DNA from: Felis catus
Taxonomy: Eukaryota
DNA: 64,000 bases
Assembly: GCF_018350175.1 (NCBI RefSeq)
Contig: NC_058368.1
Location: forward strand, 80,540,001-80,604,000
Reading direction: 5' to 3'
The notes below the pieces were generated by a model, which was given only the letters and a program-made list of their open reading frames with translations, ran no database searches and was not told the origin of the DNA. Positions 3,470-64,000 of this stretch are shown here, piece after piece. The translations under genes were made by a program, and so were the position numbers. Position 1 is the stretch's first letter, and every line of letters starts with the position of its first letter.

Positions 3470-3848
3470 GTTAGTTTCCTGGGGTGGCTGTGCCAAGTAG
3501 CACATGCTGGGTGGCTTGCCGTCTGGAGGCCTGAAGCCCGAGGCCGGGTTGCTTCGTCCATGGCCTCCCTCCCGCCTCCCGTGTTGCTGGGCACCATTGG
3601 TCTCGTTGGCTTCCGCTGCCCCACCCGTGTTTTCCTCTTCACTCGGAGTTCTCCCCATGTCCTCGTCCCAACGTCCCCTTTTGGTCAGGCGCCGGTCACA
3701 CCGGCTTAGGCCCAGCCTGTTCCAGCACGACGTCGCCCTACCTGGTTCTATCTGCACTGGCCCTGCTCTTCTGCACAAGCTTCTGTTCTGAGGTCCTGGG
3801 GATCAGGACTTTAGTTGAGGGATCAGGGGGCACAATTCAGTCACAACA
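3470..3848. mobile_element. MLT1-type MaLR LTR remnant
   Basis: TTAGTTTCCT...CTGGGTGGCTT...TCTGGAGGC start and TTCTGAGGTCCTGGGG..AGGAC...GGGGCACAATTCA...AACA end. Confidence 0.65.
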
Positions 3849-4929
3849 AGCAGTGTGATTATAAGCCGCATGTAAGAGAAACCCAGTCCTTCTCCCTGGG
3901 TCAGTAACTCCAAGCGGTTCTTGCAGTGGTGATACTTGGTCATCAGTTGTTTGATTTCCTAAAAACATTTCACAAAGCACTCAAACAGGGCAGTTTGACC
4001 TTTCAACAAGACTAATTCAAATGATCTGTGTTTCGGAGAATTTGCAACACTCACTCCAGGTACCGGGAGATAGGAGACACTCTAGCTCACCATGAAAGTC
4101 TCACTACAGGTCACTGGCCTTGTGTCCCTGATCAAGACAGCAAACATGAATCTTATGGACAGATGGGTTCCTTTGGGCTCTATCACTGGAGTGGTTTGTT
4201 TCTGTCTAGTTTAGAGCAAGAGTAAATTCTAGGTGGGGTCTAAAAGAGTGAGGACAGCCGCTGGGTCTCTGTGATCTGGATGGTGCCATGTTCCTGGTGC
4301 AGGGGGCTGTGGGCACAGAGACTAGAGGCTTAGGATCCCCAGGAGCGATCGAGCATCTGGTTTGGCCGAGAGTTGGGAGTGTTGTCCAGGCCAAGGCACG
4401 GCCTCCTGGGCCCACACTTGCCTGTTTGACACCCTCCGTGCTGGATACAGATTCAGCCTCCAAATGTGAAGGTGCAGGGGAGGCCGACTCCCCAGATGCA
4501 TTTGCCCAAAGCGGGAGGTGTAAGCCAGTGGTTCTCAGCCCTGCCGGCAACCTGTGTGCCCAGGAATGTGTGTGTAAGCCCTTGTGTGTTCCTATGGCCT
4601 TTCATTTCAAGGTCACCAAAGAAAAAAAAAAAAGAGAGAGACTGTTCCCTACCTATTTCCCTTCACTAGCCTGTTGACAATCCCTGACATTTTTGCCCAA
4701 AGTGATTTCTTCTCTGGTTGAGCTGTCCCTATATTCCTGGAAAGCATTGCTCACCTGCTCCCCATCAAGCACTTACTGAGGTCTTGTTTGCACAGAGCAC
4801 AGTGACAGACGCCGACACAGATGATTAAATCACAGGCCTGCTTTTAATTAATGTATGGTCACCTACAGGACGTTACTCACAAGACTATGAACACAAAAGA
4901 GAACTACAGTAAATTCCATGAAAGAGGTG

Positions 4930-5872: not shown

Positions 5873-6289
5873 TATATATACTTAAATACGGTATATATAT
5901 GTAAATTACATGTTAGTAAAACTGACCAAATATGCATATGTATGAATGACTACAAGCCTGGTGTTTATCACATTTGGGAACTACAGCCAACAGCTATAAT
6001 ACTTTCAACTCACCATCATTAAGGAAGGGAAAAAGTGTTTTAATGGCTGTAAGCAAGGAACTGAGTTGTTCAAATCAGTAAATATACACACAAAATTAAG
6101 TCTTCTGGGACATACACGAGATCCCCCACCCCCAGCCCTGAGCACGCTGTCCACCCCCCCTACTGACACCGCCATTTACCGGCCGCCCAATTCCAACCTC
6201 CTTTCCTTCCTCTCCACGTCCAACCAACCGCTCGGTTCTGAAAACGTTGTTCCCTGAGAGGCCGTGCAGGGTACCGCTGACTCTCTCCC

Positions 6290-7350
6290 ACCCCTCTTGG
6301 CTTCCAGACCTAAACTGGGCTCGAGTCTCCAAGGGACCCGAGGGAACCAAGTGACCAGAAGGAGATGTGCCACTGCCAGAGGAGTGAATGGAATACACAG
6401 AAGAATATTGGTGGAAAAACCGTGTGGTTTTCCCCATGTATATGGACAGGAATTCAGGGACTATATGTGGACATGGCTATTAAGGGTATGGGATGGTGGT
6501 GGAAGGAACATAACGTCGGATCAGGTTGAATATATGGATATGGGCCTGCTAGGTGGGGATTGTTTGATGTCTTAGTTCGAGAGGTCAGCAGGGGCTTGTG
6601 TGGTTGGTTGGTGACGACGGACCACACAGTGACCTATACTTAATGAGGTCACAATGCCAGAACTGCCTTGGTGTGCTCTAGAAGGTGTCTGATGGCTTGG
6701 GGAGACTGGACCGTTAAGTGGCTTCACCGTGTAAGACCCGCTCGTCCTGCGGGCGTCACCGTGACCGGGGGAGATCGATTTGTGAAGGGGCACAGCCAGC
6801 TGGAGAGCCCCGACGTCGTTCTTGCGAAGGTCCGACCTCACTGGATTCTGGGGCTCGGGGCCACGTGGGGGCACTACACCACCAAAGGCAGAGTGGGTGC
6901 GGTCACCGTGGTGGACAGCAGAGTCAAGGCGGAAACCAGAACAGTCGGACCCCTGGGGTGTGGGCCGGCTGATCGCAGCGATCCCAACGTGGAACGGGAG
7001 GGAGGCCTCCTCGGTCTGAGTGAGCACAAGAGCTGCAGATCCATGAACGGAAGCCTAACCTGAATCCCGACACCAGAGTCACGGCCCCTCCGTCACTTCC
7101 CAGACTTGAACAGGTCTTCCCACGCTTGCCTGTTCACAGAACCCCTGGAACGAAGGGGACGCCGGGTCCCTCCCTGGTCCATGCCGGAAGTGTCTGCTGG
7201 CCACCCTCCTCCTGGCCTCCTCCCAGGGCGACCGTGTCCTGGGGAAAAGAAATAGACGCATCGGGGACTCGCGGCTCTGAGCTGACACCGATTCCGGGAG
7301 ACCCCGGACCTCACTGCGATCACCCATCAGGGAAGGGCTCATGAAGGTGG
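6290..7350 (+). mobile_element. Degraded ERV-L-type internal region (gag and protease remnants)
   Basis: YGQEFRDYMWTWLLRVWDGGGRNITSDQVEYMDMG resembles ERV-L/Fv1-like gag (W.W.LRVWDNGGRNI.LDQAEF.DMG). WGK...GSELTPIPGDP.PHC resembles ERV-L protease (DTGSELTLIPGDP). Multiple frameshifts and stops. Confidence 0.75.
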
Positions 7351-33871: not shown

Positions 33872-34040
33872 CAAGAGTAGGGAAGGGGCAGAGAGAGGGA
33901 GACACAGAATCTGAAGCAGGTTCCAGGCTCTGTCTGAGCTGTCAGCACAGAGCCCCATGCCGGGCTCCAACTCCTGAACTGTGAGATCATGACCTGTGCA
34001 GAAGTTGGAGGCTTAACTGACTGAGCCACCCAGGCACCCC
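33807..34040 (-). mobile_element. CAN-SINE
   Basis: SINE in reverse; AAGC(T/C)TCTATTTTTT flanks. Confidence 0.9.
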
Positions 34041-34559
34041 TTAAGCCTCTATTTTTTTTTTTTAAGTTTTATATGGCTTCTAGCTTTTGTCATTAACTGG
34101 ACTATACGTGCCTGGCATACCGTCAGCTCTCTGTAGGTGACTACTAAGCTGTTGTAAACTGCCACAGGCCACCATGCAAGCCAGCAGGGAAAGCACTTGG
34201 GGGCTGTGGAGGGAGTAAAGGGACACATGTGTTCAAGGGACTCTCCTTTACACAGTGCTCTTGTAAGAAGGGGCTCTCTTCCTTGGTCAGATGCATGTGT
34301 CAATGTCATTCCATGTTCGGAGAAGCTTGTTCATTGCGGGACACTTGGAAGTCCGAGTTCTTCAAGTCCGGCCTGCGCGTTGCCAGGGCCATTGCCAACC
34401 GACCATGTTCTGCCCAAGTGCGATGAGGGCTGAGAGGTCGGTTTGGTTGGGGCCGTTCTCCGTCCTTCCTTCCCCGTCGTCGTCACCGACACAGACCCAG
34501 TTCAGGCTCTGCTGCTTTCCTGATACCCATGGTTTCTGAAACGTCACCATCAGTTAAAG

Positions 34560-36430
34560 TGGAGTCGCTCCAAGGTTTCTGGTCCTGCAGAGCGGGCCGG
34601 CCTGGCGGGTGGTGAGGTCACGCGCCGGAGCTGGCCTCCCGGCAGGGGGCACACCTGACACCCGCGCGCCACGCTGGGGGTGGGGGTGCGGGCGTCCACG
34701 TCCCCAAGGATCTCAGCAGCGCCGGGGAAATCAATTCCTCTCCGAATTAGGCCCATCTGCTCACAGATTTAATGATGATTTGTGTTCTGTAATTGCTGGC
34801 TTACAAAGTGGCGGGGAGAAGCGAACGTCTCGTTTTCAGCACCCCCCACCCCCCCACCCCCGCCCGAAATAAAACTGGCAAAAATCAAAAGAGCATTCTG
34901 GGAAGCACTTAATAGTTGCAACGCTGGTGAATTCAGAAAATCAATGACGGGCTCCGCGCCCTCTGAGGAGGGGCCGGCGCGAGGGCAGCGCCGCGCGCTC
35001 CGGCGTCCGCGGGGCGTGCGCGGGGGCCCGCGGGGCGCAAACGGTTAAGGCGGCCGGCGCCTCCGGAGGTCACGGCGGCGCAGGTGGGCGCGCACGGCCG
35101 GGCCGGGGCGGGGGCGCGCGGCGGGGCGCACGGCGGGCCCGAGCGCGGGGTGCGTGTGCGGCCGGCCGGCGCGGGGCTGCTCCAGCGCCGCGTCTTTTCT
35201 TCTCCTCGCGGTGATGTCATCGGCGGCGGCGGCTGGGAGCCGGGAGGCGGCGGCGGGGGCGGCGCCGGGCGGCCGCCGCAGGTTCATGTGCATCTAATGA
35301 AAAGGCACTTGACAGTCGGCCAGGACGCACGCGAGGGAGCGCGAGCCGGCCGGACCGCGGCGCCGCCCGAGCCAATCGCGGGGCCGGCCTCTCCATGGGC
35401 GACCCGGAGGGGGCGGGGGGCGCAGCCGGCCGGGCCGCGGCCGCTCCGAGGTGAACGGCGCCCAGACGGGCTCGCGGCGCGGGGAGGCCGGGCGCGCCGC
35501 CGCTATGAATTCCGCCGAGCAGACCGTTACGTGGCTCATCACCTTGGGCGTGCTGGAGTCGCCCAAGAAAACCATCTCGGACCCGGAGGGCTTCCTGCAG
35601 GCGTCTCTGAAGGATGGGGTGGTCCTCTGCAGGCTGCTGGAGCGCCTGCTCCCCGGGACCATCGAGAAAGTAAGTGCCGCCCCGGCCCGCGCCCCCACGG
35701 CGCACAGGCCCGGGCGGCGGGCGCCCCGCCTCGTTCCCGCCGCGGCCCGGGATGCGCGGAGACGTGCGGGCGCGGGGTCGCAGGCGCCGGCACCTGGCGG
35801 CCGCGCGGGGCGCGGAGGAGCCCACGCGCCTCCTTTGTGCGCGGACCCGGGAACGCGGCCCGCGCGGGGGGCGCGCAGGCGGCGCGAGGCCCGGGCGGCG
35901 GGAGCTGGGGGCGCCATTGTGTGCGCTGCGGCGGGGCCCGGGGTGGGGGTGTGGGGGTGGCCCGGCCGTGTCCGAGGGGACCGGCCCCGGGGAGGCCGCA
36001 GGGAAGGGGAGCGGCGGCTCCGCTCCGCCCCAAGGTGGAGTCGCCCCTGTCGGTGACCCGAGCGGAGAGCCGCGCTCCAGCGCCGCGCACAGCCTCCTCG
36101 AGGCTTTGTTTGAACAGTTTTTGTTGGTGGTATCGTAGGAGAGTTTCACCTCTGCTTAGTCGACCAATTGTTGGGCGTTTTTCAAAGGCATTGATCGATA
36201 GCCGAGGGCCGGGCTGTAAGATGACCGACTGCCCTCCCCGCCAGAGAATTCCTCGTGTCTCCAAGCCCCGAGGATGGCCGACCCCACGAAGCCAAGGCAC
36301 TCTCCGAGGCTGGCTTAAAATTATCGATTTCATTTTCGGGTCCGTGCCTGATTCTGAGCACAATCACCGGGCCCACAGACCCTGCCTGCTTCTGTGTTGG
36401 TGGCCGGTGGTTTCCCCGGGGCGGGGGTGT
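34560..36430. promoter_or_regulatory. ARHGEF7: CpG island / ARHGEF7 promoter with GC boxes, CCAAT box (35372-35376) and CRE/ATF-like TGATGTCA (35212-35219)
   Basis: Very high GC and CpG density spanning the first exon; GGGGCGGGG boxes; GCCAATC about 130 nt upstream of the ATG. Confidence 0.9.
35505..35669 (+). CDS. ARHGEF7: Rho guanine nucleotide exchange factor 7 (beta-PIX), first coding exon, N-terminal part of the calponin-homology domain (55 codons, phase-0 intron follows)
   Basis: Translates [55 protein letters not shown], recognised as the ARHGEF7 N-terminus. ATG context is GCCGCCGCTATGA. The exon ends AAA|GTAAGT (consensus donor) and lies in a CpG island. No exon 2 was recognised in the window. 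Confidence 0.96.
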
Positions 36431-36564
36431 GAACCCTGACCCTCATCTCTGCCAGTGATTAAAGTTTGCTTTCCTCCCACACAGGCTGACAAAGCCAGGG
36501 CTGGGGGTAGAAGTGCTTTTAAAAACGATGTGACCCTGTGTTTCAAAAACACTGCAATTTTATC

Positions 36565-60278: not shown

Positions 60279-60453
60279 CAATGCTATACATTTCATTAGG
60301 ACATACATTTCCAAATAAAGTTTTACTTTTACATTTGATAAATTTTCCTCAGAAACTTGAAGGTATTGTTCCCATTGTTTGCGTGCTCATAATAGTTGTG
60401 TTTAATTTAGAAGAACAATTGTAACAATTAGATCTTTACTAACCTTAAAGGTA

Positions 60454-63038
60454 GAGTTGATTCTCGTTACTTGTGGTAGTTGTGTCCTACAAAGTCACTG
60501 TGAACACTGAATTAGCAACTACTGAACCACTCTTCCTAGGGCAAATACCTGGTTAATTTCCTTCCAGATAGACATTGCAAGGTTTTGTCAACCAGTCAAC
60601 ACATAATCTTGTTTTAGTGTATTTCCACTTGGAGACGGCTTATTTAATACATGTTCCTTACAAATAATTAGTTGCATGCAGGGTTTCTTCATAGTACAAC
60701 ACAATTTCAGTTACAGCACCATGAACTGTTTACCTCTTCAGTTCAGTTGCACACGGTGCACACTCAGCAAACACATACTGTATGCTGCATAGTACGGTAA
60801 TGTAAGAAAGCCAGCCCTGAACACAGCATTATGCGAAGCTTGAACGCTTGAAATTTTGTGAAAACATTAAAACCTTACTTGTGGTGGAGCTGTGGGCTTT
60901 GTGATGGGGCAGTGGGCAGTGTGGTTAAATCTCTAGACCTTGGCTTGCCCCACAAAAACCAAGACAGAGTAGGTGTTGTACTCGGCAGAAGAGGAAGAAG
61001 TCAGTGAGGGTGACACGTGAGATCGGACAGCTCTACCTCAGGAGTTCGGCTTTCACAATGTGTTGATGGTGTCGGCAACTCTCCCTCCCAAACTGGCTTG
61101 AAAAATTCCTTCAGCCTTGTCTGCTTGGCTTTTCGCCTCAAATCTTTAAGTGTTTCTGCATAAGGGACGAATGCAGTGGAGGTGAGGCGCTTAAATGTGA
61201 GGCTCCGTTCGAGCACGGGGTCACACTCTTCCATGTCATGGAAAATTTTTTCCAGGGCAGAATTCCATTCTGCTATTTTGGCTGCCGTGAGAGGGACAAT
61301 TCTTGGACTCTTAGGCTGACCTTCATCACTGCCATCATCATCGCTGACGCCAGTGCCATGCTTTGCTATCTCATCCAGGTCTTTGTTGGTGGGTTCTACT
61401 GCCATTTCTGCCAAAATGTCCTCCACATCTCCCTCCCTCATGTCTCTGAAGCCTTCTCCACTTATTTGCTGTGCAATATGCATTATGTTTTCCACACTGT
61501 TCTTTATACTTTCTCTAACACCTTCAAAGCCTTCAAAAGTTTTCACGCAGTCTGGCCAAACATTTGCCCAACAGTTATTAATAGTAGCCTGCCTGATGCT
61601 GTCCCACGCTGTGCTGATATAATCTATAACGTTGCGTATCGTGACGGAATTCCAGTAGTCCATCATGGTGGTTTCCTCGTTGGCATCAAGAGCCTCAAAA
61701 GCCTTGCTATAAAGCTCCCTGGTGTAGTGGGCCTTGAAAGCTTTTATTATCCCCTGACTGAGGGGTTGGATGAGAGAAGCAGTGTTTGGGGGCATGAAGA
61801 GAACTTCTATGTCAGGGTGGGCATTTTCAAGTTCTTCATGGCAATGAACTGGGGCACTATCCAAAATTAGTAAAATCCTGAAGGCAAGGTTTTTGCTATG
61901 GAGGTAGCGTTCAGCTTCTGGGATGAAGCAGTTGTGGAACCAATCCCAGAATATTTCAGATGCCATCCATGCCTTTTTGTTCCACCTCCAATGGACTGGC
62001 ATACGGTTCAGATTTTTCCCTCGAAGTGCTTGAGGGTTTTGTGCTCTGTGTACCATGAGGGGTTTGCACTTAAAGTCACCCTTGGCATTGGCACATAATA
62101 GCAAGGTTGCACGGTCTTTGAATGATTTAAAGCCAGGAGCCTTGGAGGCCATTTGCATTATATAGGTTCGTCTGCCAACATTCTTGTAAAACAAGCCTGT
62201 CTCATCAGCGTTGAAAACCTGCTCTTCCATATAACCCTTTTCATGTATAATGCTTAGCAGATACTTTTTAAATTCTTCTGCAGCTTCCTCATCTGCAGGA
62301 CCTGCCTTCTGTCCAAGTTTAACGTTTTTCATGTGGTATCGCCTTTTGAAACGTGCAAGCCAGCCTGCACTAGCTGAGAAGGGTTTAACCTTTTCCTGAC
62401 CCTGGGTAACATGACTGTAAATTTCCTTGGCTTTCAGCCTCACAACAACACTGTCTACCATGCTCTTTTTATTGGTTGTCATCTCCTGAATCCACAAATT
62501 TAGCTGCTTTTCCATCTTTTCCATAGCCGCATCACGCACTATAGATGTTACTTTAGCACTTTCTGGAGCAGCCTCACGTACAGATCGGCGAATATCGTCT
62601 TCCTTTTTCTGGATGTACCGTATTGTTGATTCATTAACGTTGAACTCACGGCCAACAGCACTGTAACTCAGGCCTGAACGAAGCTTATCTAACACACGTA
62701 TTTTCTCTGTAAGGCACATCACAGCCTTCTTGCGCTTAGGAACATTAGACAGTGCTTTAGCGCTACGCTTGGGGGCCATTTAAAATAGCAAAGTCACCAA
62801 GAAGAACCACAAAAATGTGAAAAACGTGATGCCAGTAGAGAGTGAAAAGGACATCTGCTTACCTTAGGAGCTGAAGCAAGAGGGCAGAGCACAGTCTTGT
62901 TCAAGTTTAGCTGGGAATGTGTGTCATGTCTGTGAATGACTGGGAAAGTGCCACCAGTATTGATTTTGGGGTTACAAACAAATTTTATCAAGTAGGTGAA
63001 TTTGCACAGAATCCGTGAATGAATGAGGACGTGGACTG
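60454..63038 (-). mobile_element. Full-length TcMar-Tigger DNA transposon (about 2.6 kb) with degenerate TIRs; termini MER82-like
   Basis: Left end TA|GAGTTGATTCTCGTTACTTGTGG (TA at 60452-53). Right end CCGTGAATGAATGAGGACGTGGACTG|TA (TA at 63039-40); its reverse complement CAGTCCACGTCCTCATTCATTCACGG is an imperfect inverted match to the left end. TA duplication is typical of Tc1/mariner/pogo. Encloses the transposase ORF. Confidence 0.85.
61001..62779 (-). CDS. Tigger/pogo (TIGD/CENP-B-like) transposase-derived protein, 592 aa, single uninterrupted ORF, antisense within ARHGEF7 intron 1
   Basis: N-terminal psq-type HTH (LTEKIRVLDKL...VGREFNVNESTIRYI), Tc5/CENP-B-type HTH (MEKQLNLWI...FSASAGWLARFKRRY), DDE_1 domain motifs VFNADETGLFYK, AWM, LILDSAPVH and MPPNTASLIQPLSQGIIKAFK, acidic patch, C-terminal QTRLKEFF. 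Confidence 0.9.
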   Translation of the reverse strand: MAPKRSAKALSNVPKRKKAVMCLTEKIRVLDKLRSGLSYSAVGREFNVNESTIRYIQKKEDDIRRSVREAAPESAKVTSIVRDAAMEKMEKQLNLWIQEMTTNKKSMVDSVVVRLKAKEIYSHVTQGQEKVKPFSASAGWLARFKRRYHMKNVKLGQKAGPADEEAAEEFKKYLLSIIHEKGYMEEQVFNADETGLFYKNVGRRTYIMQMASKAPGFKSFKDRATLLLCANAKGDFKCKPLMVHRAQNPQALRGKNLNRMPVHWRWNKKAWMASEIFWDWFHNCFIPEAERYLHSKNLAFRILLILDSAPVHCHEELENAHPDIEVLFMPPNTASLIQPLSQGIIKAFKAHYTRELYSKAFEALDANEETTMMDYWNSVTIRNVIDYISTAWDSIRQATINNCWANVWPDCVKTFEGFEGVRESIKNSVENIMHIAQQISGEGFRDMREGDVEDILAEMAVEPTNKDLDEIAKHGTGVSDDDGSDEGQPKSPRIVPLTAAKIAEWNSALEKIFHDMEECDPVLERSLTFKRLTSTAFVPYAETLKDLRRKAKQTRLKEFFKPVWEGELPTPSTHCESRTPEVELSDLTCHPH

Positions 63039-64000
63039 TATTTGTATGGGTCTCTTGCCAAAACAAAAAAACCCAACCAAACAAAAACAGTGATCAGTAA
63101 AAATGGTTTAGTATAAAAATGTCTTACTTTAGCATACTGTTTTGTTGCAGGAAGTGGAATGGAAAGACGCTGAAGGAGAACAGAATGTAAAATGTCTGAC
63201 TTTTAAACAAGGAATTTGTTCATTAATTTTTTAAGATGGAGAATGGCTATTTCTACTGTTTTTTGAGCTACTGGACATAATTTTAAAGCATATTTAACAG
63301 TTTCAAAATGTCCTCAAGACATCAGAAATTAAAGCTTTGCAACTACTTAAAATTATTAAGCATGCATATTTGGTGCATACTTTTTCAAAATTCTTTTATG
63401 GAGAGGAGCAAATGGACCAGGAAGCAGCTTTGGTTTATCTGTTCACAGAAAAAAAAAAAAAATCCGTTCAATTTGGAGGAAATATGTTGGCAATTTCTTC
63501 TAAGGATTTTTAAATTGTAGGAAAAAAAGGGTCTGATTTTTGCCCTCTTTGTACTTCTTAACACCCTTGTTTTTCGTTTTGATTTATAACTTTAAAAGAC
63601 CCAAGCTTGAAATGAAACCAGAGTATTCCTGTAAGGCCTGATGGAATGCTGTGATATCCCCATACAAGGACAAAAGTGCCCTGAATGTCCTTAGATGCTA
63701 GAGTTCTGGATGATGCTGTAGTGTAGCTCTCAAAACTTAGTCTTCTTATGTGTCAGAACGACAAAGGGCCCTTCTCATGTCTCCGGCTTCTCTCTTGATT
63801 GCTCTCGGTTTTCTTGACTTTTCTGGTCCGGGAGGCTGTCAGTAACTCCTCACAGGTGTGGCAGGTGGCCCTCAAAGTTCTCTCTTGGCAGCCTGCACCG
63901 GGCCCTCCTCGACGCTCTCCGCCCGTGGTAGAGGCCGCAGACAACTGCTTCCTAGCTGACTTGCTCACTGATATGTAACTGGCTATTCTGGTTAATCATT

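Follow-up and report, generated by a model that had tools for sequence, protein, structure and literature searches.

Why has a transposase reading frame remained open inside an intron of a host gene? The question is raised by a 64,000-nucleotide (nt) stretch of the cat genome (Felis catus, contig C1, positions 80,540,001-80,604,000; hereafter the window), in which an element of 2,585 nt (window positions 60454-63038) with TA on both flanks lies antisense in the first intron of ARHGEF7. The element carries an open reading frame (ORF) of 592 codons, running from ATG to TGA with no stop and no frameshift. Our answer, which we consider very probable, is that this ORF is a molecularly domesticated pogo/Tigger transposase gene; we refer to it as gene A, after the clade to which it belongs, and to its only intact relative of the same family as paralog B. 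An original prediction, made from the sequence, had described an intact frame of this length within a TA-flanked element whose terminal inverted repeats (TIRs) had diverged by substitutions and indels, had placed it antisense in ARHGEF7 intron 1, had not recognized it as one of the named human TIGD genes, and had inferred from the decayed ends and intact ORF that the protein was under purifying selection. All of these points are borne out below; its suggestion that the gene might be lineage-restricted is not.

An Intact pogo/Tigger Transposase Frame

The three domain matches in the ORF, CENP-B_N, HTH_Tnp_Tc5 and DDE_1, all pass the Pfam curated cut-offs (Table 1), and by this architecture together with its fold matches the ORF is a pogo/Tigger transposase of the IS630-Tc1-mariner group. 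Its only solved sequence relatives are the CENP-B DNA-binding domain (1hlv, E = 1e-4, amino acids (aa) 14-147) and a fly CENP-B_N domain. The AlphaFold model, built on a 93-row alignment, has a mean predicted local distance difference test score (pLDDT) of 79.7; in it, two well-folded helix-turn-helix (HTH) bundles accompany a beta/alpha core, and a helical hairpin at aa 499-552 is modelled with confidence. The best fold matches in the PDB are the Mos1 transposase, the CENP-B DNA-binding domain, and the catalytic domains of SETMAR/Metnase (3k9k, 3f2k) and Sleeping Beauty, with a match probability of about 1.0 and E-values of 1.5e-3 to 5e-2, none of which reaches E <= 0.001. Such a frame is exceptional in its surroundings: the 64-kb window holds 35 stop-to-stop frames of at least 150 aa, only two of which reach 400 aa, and the second (34967-36439) lies in a GC-rich island open in six frames and was graded as a CpG-island artefact.

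Purifying Selection on the Frame

Over 588 aligned codons, genes A and B differ by dN = 0.122 (non-synonymous divergence) and dS = 0.462 (synonymous divergence), giving omega (dN/dS) = 0.265 with a bootstrap 95% interval of 0.20-0.35 by the Nei-Gojobori method, well below 1. The differences fall at codon positions 1/2/3 in the proportion 79/59/146, and the alignment gaps are exclusively in-frame. By region, omega is 0.33 in the DNA-binding part, 0.16 in the catalytic core (aa 161-410), the most constrained region of the ORF by this measure, and 0.40 in the C-terminal third. Among 15 full-length clade A proteins, invariant columns are most frequent in the second HTH domain (47/67) and in the core (112/184) and least frequent at the C-terminal end.

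To apportion the changes, differences between A and B were polarized with ten decayed copies of the family as outgroup. Of the changes assigned to the A lineage, 50 are synonymous and 56 non-synonymous (omega about 0.29, binomial p = 1.2e-9), so that the non-synonymous share is 0.53 against the 0.79 expected under neutrality. For the B lineage the counts are 60 and 75 (p = 5.5e-10). Restricting the count to codons 1-223, which are covered by four or more outgroup copies, gives 17 synonymous and 23 non-synonymous changes in A (p = 0.0015) and 20 and 24 in B (p = 0.0002). Judged from these substitution patterns the ORF is under purifying selection, with Ka/Ks below 1, and this selection appears to be moderate.

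A genome with thousands of Tigger fragments (3,353 first-look candidates) could offer a long frame by chance, in which case the ORF would be a neutral relic that is open by luck. At d = 0.16, the synonymous divergence of the window lineage, an analytical calculation puts the probability that no stop arises at about 2e-5, and the frame survived in 3 of 20,000 simulations, both figures allowing for substitutions only. In other copies of the family a stop occurs about every 25-35 codons, the frame is open at 558 aa or more in the orthologs of at least 14 other species, and omega is well below 1. On these three counts, the stop statistics, the open ortholog frames and omega, we reject the neutral relic as an explanation and give it a negligible probability.

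One of Two Intact Copies of an Ancient Family

A DNA search of the cat genome (2.43 Gb, 71 contigs) with the element gave 48 matches, 40 of 1,241 candidates having been scored, and the genome holds no fewer than 40 broken-up members of this family, at 68-82% identity. Matches other than the element itself and paralog B are 68-82% identical and mostly internally deleted; in the sole decayed copy of nearly full length, aa 197-591 are interrupted by 16 stops. Paralog B is the only other intact copy among the scored matches and, at 82%, the best DNA match after self. Its element of 2,634 nt begins with TA followed by CAGTTGACG... and ends with ...GAATCAACTG followed by AA. Because B has these termini of its own and flanks unrelated to those of A, the pair derives from two insertions rather than from a segmental duplication. 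A 12-row maximum-likelihood (ML) DNA tree built from the first 720 nt has the shape of a star, in which A and B are not resolved as sisters, as expected for a single transposition burst. The end branches of the ten decayed copies measure 0.16-0.28 substitutions per site and those of A and B 0.084 each, so that the decayed copies, a neutral control of the same age in the same genome, evolve about 2.6 times faster than A and B. The Golem/Tigger3 element of Hellen & Brookfield 2012, with an ORF at 463-2307 of its consensus and no intact horse copy reported, is of another family than the window element.

The full transposase architecture, the TA flanks and the recognizable TIR remnants would also suit an active or recently active transposon, possibly horizontally transferred, in which the ORF serves its own transposition. 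The many near-identical full-length copies that the original prediction had associated with such activity are absent among the scored matches, where even the closest copy reaches no more than 82% identity in DNA and 78% in protein, the rest being broken. The star tree with its long neutral branches, the decayed TIRs, a gene tree that tracks the species tree and the loss of a catalytic residue in 22/22 clade A proteins (see below) argue further against mobility, and we regard an active element as highly improbable.

Orthologs and Age of the Gene

The homology search returned 117 proteins at E <= 1e-20 among 7,999 scored. In a careful ML tree of 35 rows (LG+G4) two clades stand out, A with support of 100/99 and B with 100/99; an armadillo protein falls outside both. 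Clade A contains carnivores (Felis, Prionailurus, Phoca, Leptonychotes, Mirounga (413 aa), three bears, Nyctereutes (586 aa) and dog), three equids, Balaenoptera musculus (442 aa), camels (300 and 329 aa) and two colugos, Cynocephalus among them, as well as two 591-aa sequences that cluster with Balaenoptera musculus and one 561-aa sequence. Intact clade A orthologs are present in felids, seals, bears, the raccoon dog, equids and a colugo. The exact window protein is present in UniRef, and its 90% cluster there comprises Ursus maritimus, U. arctos, U. americanus, Equus caballus, E. asinus and E. quagga. Clade B comprises many felids, bear, seals, sea lions, walrus, otter, equids, rhinos and many cetaceans, together with hippo, camelids (partial), colugo and marmot.

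Within each clade the Euarchontoglires branch is sister to the Laurasiatheria branch and the orders follow species-tree order, which in clade A runs from colugos to equids, cetartiodactyls and carnivores. Constraining the Euarchontoglires sequences of A and B to join made the tree 97.7 log-likelihood units worse (approximately unbiased (AU) test, p = 2.5e-46). Since both clades hold both superorders in species order, the A/B split predates Boreoeutheria and both genes were inherited vertically. The clade A gene is thus at least Boreoeutherian in age, with patchy retention. The suggestion of a lineage-restricted gene fails here, as clade A is not limited to Carnivora and has a paralog; the inference of purifying selection, by contrast, gains from the 2.6-fold shorter branch and from intact orthologs in four orders arranged in a species-like tree, in addition to the omega values of 0.265 and about 0.29.

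Loss of the Third Catalytic Aspartate

An active transposase needs a complete D-D-D triad, and this is not present in the window protein, which retains the first two aspartates and has serine in place of the third (Table 1). The same holds throughout clade A: D192 and D307 are kept in 22/22 proteins, and the third position is Ser in 16, Asn in six and Asp in none. Among 31 clade B proteins this position is Asp in 25, His in four, Asn in one and missing in one, and the armadillo and coelacanth relatives have Asp. As colugos and Laurasiatheria both carry the loss, it is as old as clade A. The clade A frame has persisted for about 100 million years (My) without a complete triad, and with its third catalytic Asp replaced the protein would not be expected to cut and paste.

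Catalytic positions have changed in clade B as well. His stands in place of the third Asp in otarioids (sea lions and walrus; P0133, P0135 and P0139) and, through an independent change, in Cynocephalus (P0017), the marmot protein has Asn at this position, and one fur-seal protein has Ala for the second Asp.

CpG Islands 5' of Both Intact Genes

A CpG island of 1.1 kb lies just beyond the window, at window-equivalent 64201-65300 (C1:80604201-80605300; 6201-7300 of locus L023), with a GC content of 0.72-0.76 and an observed/expected (o/e) CpG ratio of 0.75-1.02. It starts 1.16 kb upstream of the 5' end of the element in the minus-strand sense and surrounds an 87-nt exon of ARHGEF7. Paralog B likewise has a CpG island (3601-4400 of locus L024), ending 40 nt before its 5' repeat, and by the same criteria none of ten decayed-copy loci has one. 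The element itself contains no CpG island. An island also lies 5' of the ORF in cat CENPBD1, JRKL and TIGD2; of the remaining intact Tigger-type ORFs in the cat, L006 has an island downstream only and L004, L005 and L007 have none within 1.5-kb flanks. Kalitsis & Saffery 2009 (PMC2777200) proposed that transposase domestication is favoured by antisense placement beside CpG-island promoters, a proposal that the islands of A and B fit. The island at 64201-65300 may be an internal or bidirectional promoter.

The same paper proposes that unmethylated CpG islands may shield adjacent DNA, and constraint could thus act on the DNA rather than on the protein, through such shielding or through intronic regulation of ARHGEF7, as a "maintenance of sequence integrity." That islands adjoin the 5' side of A and of B but are missing from the ten decayed loci is what this would lead one to see. 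It predicts neither the excess of third-position differences nor the lowered non-synonymous fraction, nor does it predict indels that are exclusively in-frame over 588 codons. The noncoding parts of the element match those of B only patchily (about 75%), and the CpG o/e of the ORF is only 0.46. We judge constraint of this kind to be quite unlikely, and selection on the protein remains our preferred explanation.

Evidence Weighing against Domestication

Several observations weigh against a maintained host gene and temper our confidence. Retention of clade A is patchy, with no primate or muroid protein among the 117 matches at E <= 1e-20; the dog models (P0021, P0182) are truncated, with 340 and 425 aa, and those of camel, Mirounga and blue whale are incomplete. 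The protein tree is the sole basis for orthology within the clade. Beyond codon 224 the polarization of changes depends for the most part on one decayed copy, conservation is poor over the last 47 residues (7/47 columns invariant), and omega of about 0.27-0.3 is higher than the 0.093 given for TIGD2 (as Ka/Ks) in Gao et al. 2020. The flanks of the decayed copies extend to only about 1.5 kb, so that an island at the distance seen for A (1.16 kb) would be no more than partly visible. Finally, the filter of Gao et al. 2020, that TIRs and target-site duplication be no longer recognizable, would class the locus as a transposon, for decayed TIRs and TA flanks remain.

The stem branches of the 35-row tree bear on one further explanation, namely that the gene was ancestrally functional and still is in some lineages, whereas the cat copy is now drifting and its frame has not yet been hit. 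Canids have a stem of 0.095, about 2.7 times longer than those of seals and bears (0.034-0.035). Since this long stem coincides with a truncated dog model, the data point to relaxed constraint in canids, whose orthologs look to be decaying. Such acceleration, and the clear loss or truncation in dog and camel, speak for this explanation. The felid stem (0.046), however, resembles the ursid and phocid stems and not the canid one, the cat protein is 99% identical to that of Prionailurus and 90-92% identical to those of seals and bears, and omega is about 0.29 on the cat lineage, although averaged over about 100 My. A drifting cat gene is therefore improbable, and we retain the reading that the gene is maintained in the cat. 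The clade A models of the dog show many Arg-to-His changes; the raccoon dog protein is P0183.

Relation to Known Domesticated Transposases

RefSeq names the gene in the window "TIGD1-like." Cat TIGD1 (L004, C17:170726836-170728533) is a separate locus with only 30% identity to the window ORF, and the third catalytic Asp differs, which indicates that the label reflects similarity rather than orthology. TIGD2 (L009, 31%), JRKL (L008, 29%), CENPBD1 (L003, 33%) and another "TIGD1-like" gene (L006, C31:91284872-91286491, 33%) are likewise found at separate cat loci, in agreement with the view that the window gene is not one of the named human TIGD genes. As several intact Tigger ORFs of the cat are only 30-35% identical to it, "TIGD1-like" covers a mixture of loci that are not related. 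The ORFs in this range are L004, L006, L005 and L007; L004 is named TIGD1 (felids, meerkat) and L006 "TIGD1-like" (felids, hyenas), and L005 (C39:98023-99387) and L007 (C17:106031536-106032954), of 678 and 548 aa, had no exact protein match at look-up.

Among the closest parallels are TIGD2 and TIGD6, which are also domestications of a whole pogo transposase, with CENP-B_N, HTH_Tnp_Tc5 and DDE_1 and no added domain. TIGD2 has been described as "DD34S" (Gao 2020; Dupeyron 2020) and TIGD6 as "DD30N" (Dupeyron 2020); the window protein, in which 33 residues separate D307 from the Ser or Asn that follows, keeps the first two aspartates as these proteins do. Cat TIGD2 shares with the window gene a CpG island 5' of a single-exon ORF, but the low identity marks it as a separate domestication of another Tigger family, and it is retained across mammals including primates, whereas the window gene is patchy and still has TIR remnants. 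CENPBD1, continuous in Laurasiatheria and missing from most primates and rodents (Gao 2020), is similarly pogo-derived and patchily retained and has a 5' CpG island in the cat, where it lies on C39, the contig of paralog B; it differs in sequence and in being an accepted named gene, of 541 aa in the cat. TIGD1 (DD32D; Dupeyron 2020) has the three-domain Tigger architecture and a similar length (593 aa in the cat) but, unlike the window protein, has its third Asp. CENP-B, JRK and JRKL are likewise DNA-binding host proteins of pogo origin, and the DNA-binding domain of CENP-B is both a sequence and a fold match; the window protein has no CENP-B-type dimerization tail, and nothing connecting it with centromeres was found. 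SETMAR/Metnase, whose catalytic domain is among the fold matches of the window protein, is a domesticated transposase of the Tc1/mariner superfamily; its third catalytic residue is altered, and it still binds the repeats of the family from which it came. It differs in deriving from mariner rather than pogo, in its fusion to a SET domain and in being primate-specific.

Twelve pogo-derived genes are listed in Gao et al. 2020, and Dupeyron et al. 2020 treat a broad "TIGD1" clade. We found no published description of the window gene in the literature searched, and the supplements of these two papers may hold its sequences under the TIGD1 label. The persisting TIRs and TA flanks may explain why such loci have been set aside as transposons or "TIGD1L." On our reading the window gene is one more domesticated pogo/Tigger transposase, without a counterpart among the named human genes. 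For annotation, the "TIGD1-like" loci A and B should be neither treated as TIGD1 orthologs nor masked as repeats, for this catch-all name conceals ancient transposase genes that selection has maintained in carnivores, equids, cetaceans and colugos and that have no human counterpart.

Proposed History and Function

The data are best explained by the following history. One copy of an ancient Tigger-type family would have inserted at a TA site in the first intron of ARHGEF7, antisense to it, before the Boreoeutherian radiation. The TIRs of this copy then decayed, and the third catalytic Asp gave way, D to N and later S in several lineages, with purifying selection on the protein maintaining the 592-codon frame. 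What the protein does we infer from its domains: it may be a sequence-specific DNA-binding factor acting through its two CENP-B-type HTH domains, with the crippled RNase-H-like core and the C-terminal helical hairpin providing scaffold or interaction surfaces, as is assumed for TIGD2, TIGD6, JRK and CENP-B. The gene would probably be expressed by divergent transcription on the minus strand from the CpG island, 1.2-2.3 kb upstream of the element.

The two intact genes may be linked by a wider account, which we put forward tentatively as somewhat short of an even chance. Two copies from one Tigger burst would have become host genes independently, each a short way downstream of a CpG island, and been retained over some 100 My. 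A and B would then form an unnamed eutherian gene pair, in effect "TIGD8" and "TIGD9," that escaped naming through its loss from primates and muroid rodents and because surveys discarded "TIGD1-like" loci as pseudogene-like. Judging from the catalytic residues, B could still be a working nuclease or recombinase, and A a catalytically dead partner or competitor at the same relic sites. The two genes offer a matched pair in which B kept the catalytic triad and A lost it, and two more cases that link CpG islands with transposase domestication. There is, in addition, a natural gene-loss experiment, in that canids and camels are apparently losing the gene that bears, seals, cats and horses keep.

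Boundaries and Features of the Element

The ends of the element (Table 1) were placed by aligning the ends of ten other family copies, which gave a family terminus of TA followed by CAGTnnATCCTCATTA... The match to other copies stops at window 63037-63047 and at 60451-60455, in agreement with the boundaries, TA flanks and diverged TIRs that had been read from the sequence. The two 34-nt termini can be aligned only if many mismatches and a 2-nt indel are allowed. An inverted-repeat finder did not detect the TIRs and reported one unrelated pair, and they were recovered only through the family-copy alignment. The 5' noncoding part matches paralog B only patchily, at about 75%, and so looks neutral. 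In the 3' noncoding part, an ATTAAA 353 nt past the stop is a possible poly(A) signal.

TABLE 1 Features of the element, its ORF, the neighbouring ARHGEF7 exon and paralog B (window coordinates unless stated otherwise)
Feature	Position	Strand	Details
TA target-site duplication, 5' side	63039-63040	-	Read from sequence; family start directly after TA
Decayed 5' TIR	63005-63038	-	TA followed by CAGTCC...; 2-nt insertion and several substitutions relative to 3' repeat and other copies
5' noncoding part of element	62780-63004	-	In-frame TAA directly upstream of ATG
Transposase ORF (gene A; RefSeq "TIGD1-like")	61001-62779	-	592 codons, intact
CENP-B_N HTH DNA-binding domain, aa 15-66	62582-62737	-	Pfam E = 3.4e-8; pLDDT 85-92
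HTH_Tnp_Tc5, second DNA-binding domain, aa 87-153	62321-62521	-	Pfam E = 1e-12
D192 codon, first catalytic Asp	62204-62206	-	Kept
DDE_1 RNase-H-like catalytic core, aa 221-404	61568-62119	-	Pfam E = 3.5e-46
D307 codon, second catalytic Asp	61859-61861	-	Kept
S341 codon (AGT), third catalytic Asp position	61757-61759	-	Asp lost
3' noncoding part of element	60488-61000	-	ATTAAA at 60643-60648
Decayed 3' TIR	60454-60487	-	Ends ...GAATCAACTC, ...CAACTC followed by TA; from family end alignment
TA target-site duplication, 3' side	60452-60453	-	Read from sequence
First CH-domain coding exon of ARHGEF7	35514-35681	+	PF00307 positions 4-55, 27.1 bits; GC-rich island, GC 0.68
Paralog B, intact, 593 aa	G000:C39:49823734-49825515; L024 4440-7073 (element)	+	78% aa identity to A; own TIRs, TA/AA flanks

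In the 5' noncoding part, at 62861-62880 on the minus strand, a pyrimidine-rich ...CTTGCTTCAG is followed eight bases on by AAG/GTAAGC, giving acceptor-like and donor-like motifs. These could matter if a transcript begins upstream, in the CpG island.

Position within ARHGEF7

The intronic position follows from plus-strand anchors of ARHGEF7 on both sides of the ORF, which place it antisense between the first two CH-coding exons. The first of these was found as a CH half-domain match in a genome-wide family search (Table 1). The second is apparently the 87-nt plus-strand exon at window-equivalent 64904-64990, 904-990 nt past the end of the window, which has a pyrimidine-tract/AG acceptor and a GTGAGC donor; its assignment rests on the fact that its only other genomic match (E = 0.086, 55% identity) lies 1.2 kb downstream of the CH exon of ARHGEF6. 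Further on, also on the plus strand, are a RhoGEF67_u1 match at C1:80,637,128 and, about 102 kb beyond the window, the 3' end of ARHGEF7, marked by a match to the betaPIX coiled-coil family at C1:80,705,430-80,706,978. This family we take to be specific to ARHGEF6 and ARHGEF7; its other matches are all on C47 and presumably represent ARHGEF6. Pfam scans of the exon-2 frame and the exon-1 island frame, each as a whole, gave no match, and neither did scans of six other long frames of the window.

Two further groups of open frames were seen. The GC-rich island at 34000-36500 on the plus strand (GC 0.68) has several overlapping open frames of up to 490 aa, none of which matches a Pfam family; they seem to be artefacts of base composition. 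On the strand opposite the transposase ORF, a stop-to-stop frame of 267 aa (210 aa from ATG) at 61067-61870 (plus strand) is most likely no gene but a shadow frame of the kind usual for long ORFs.

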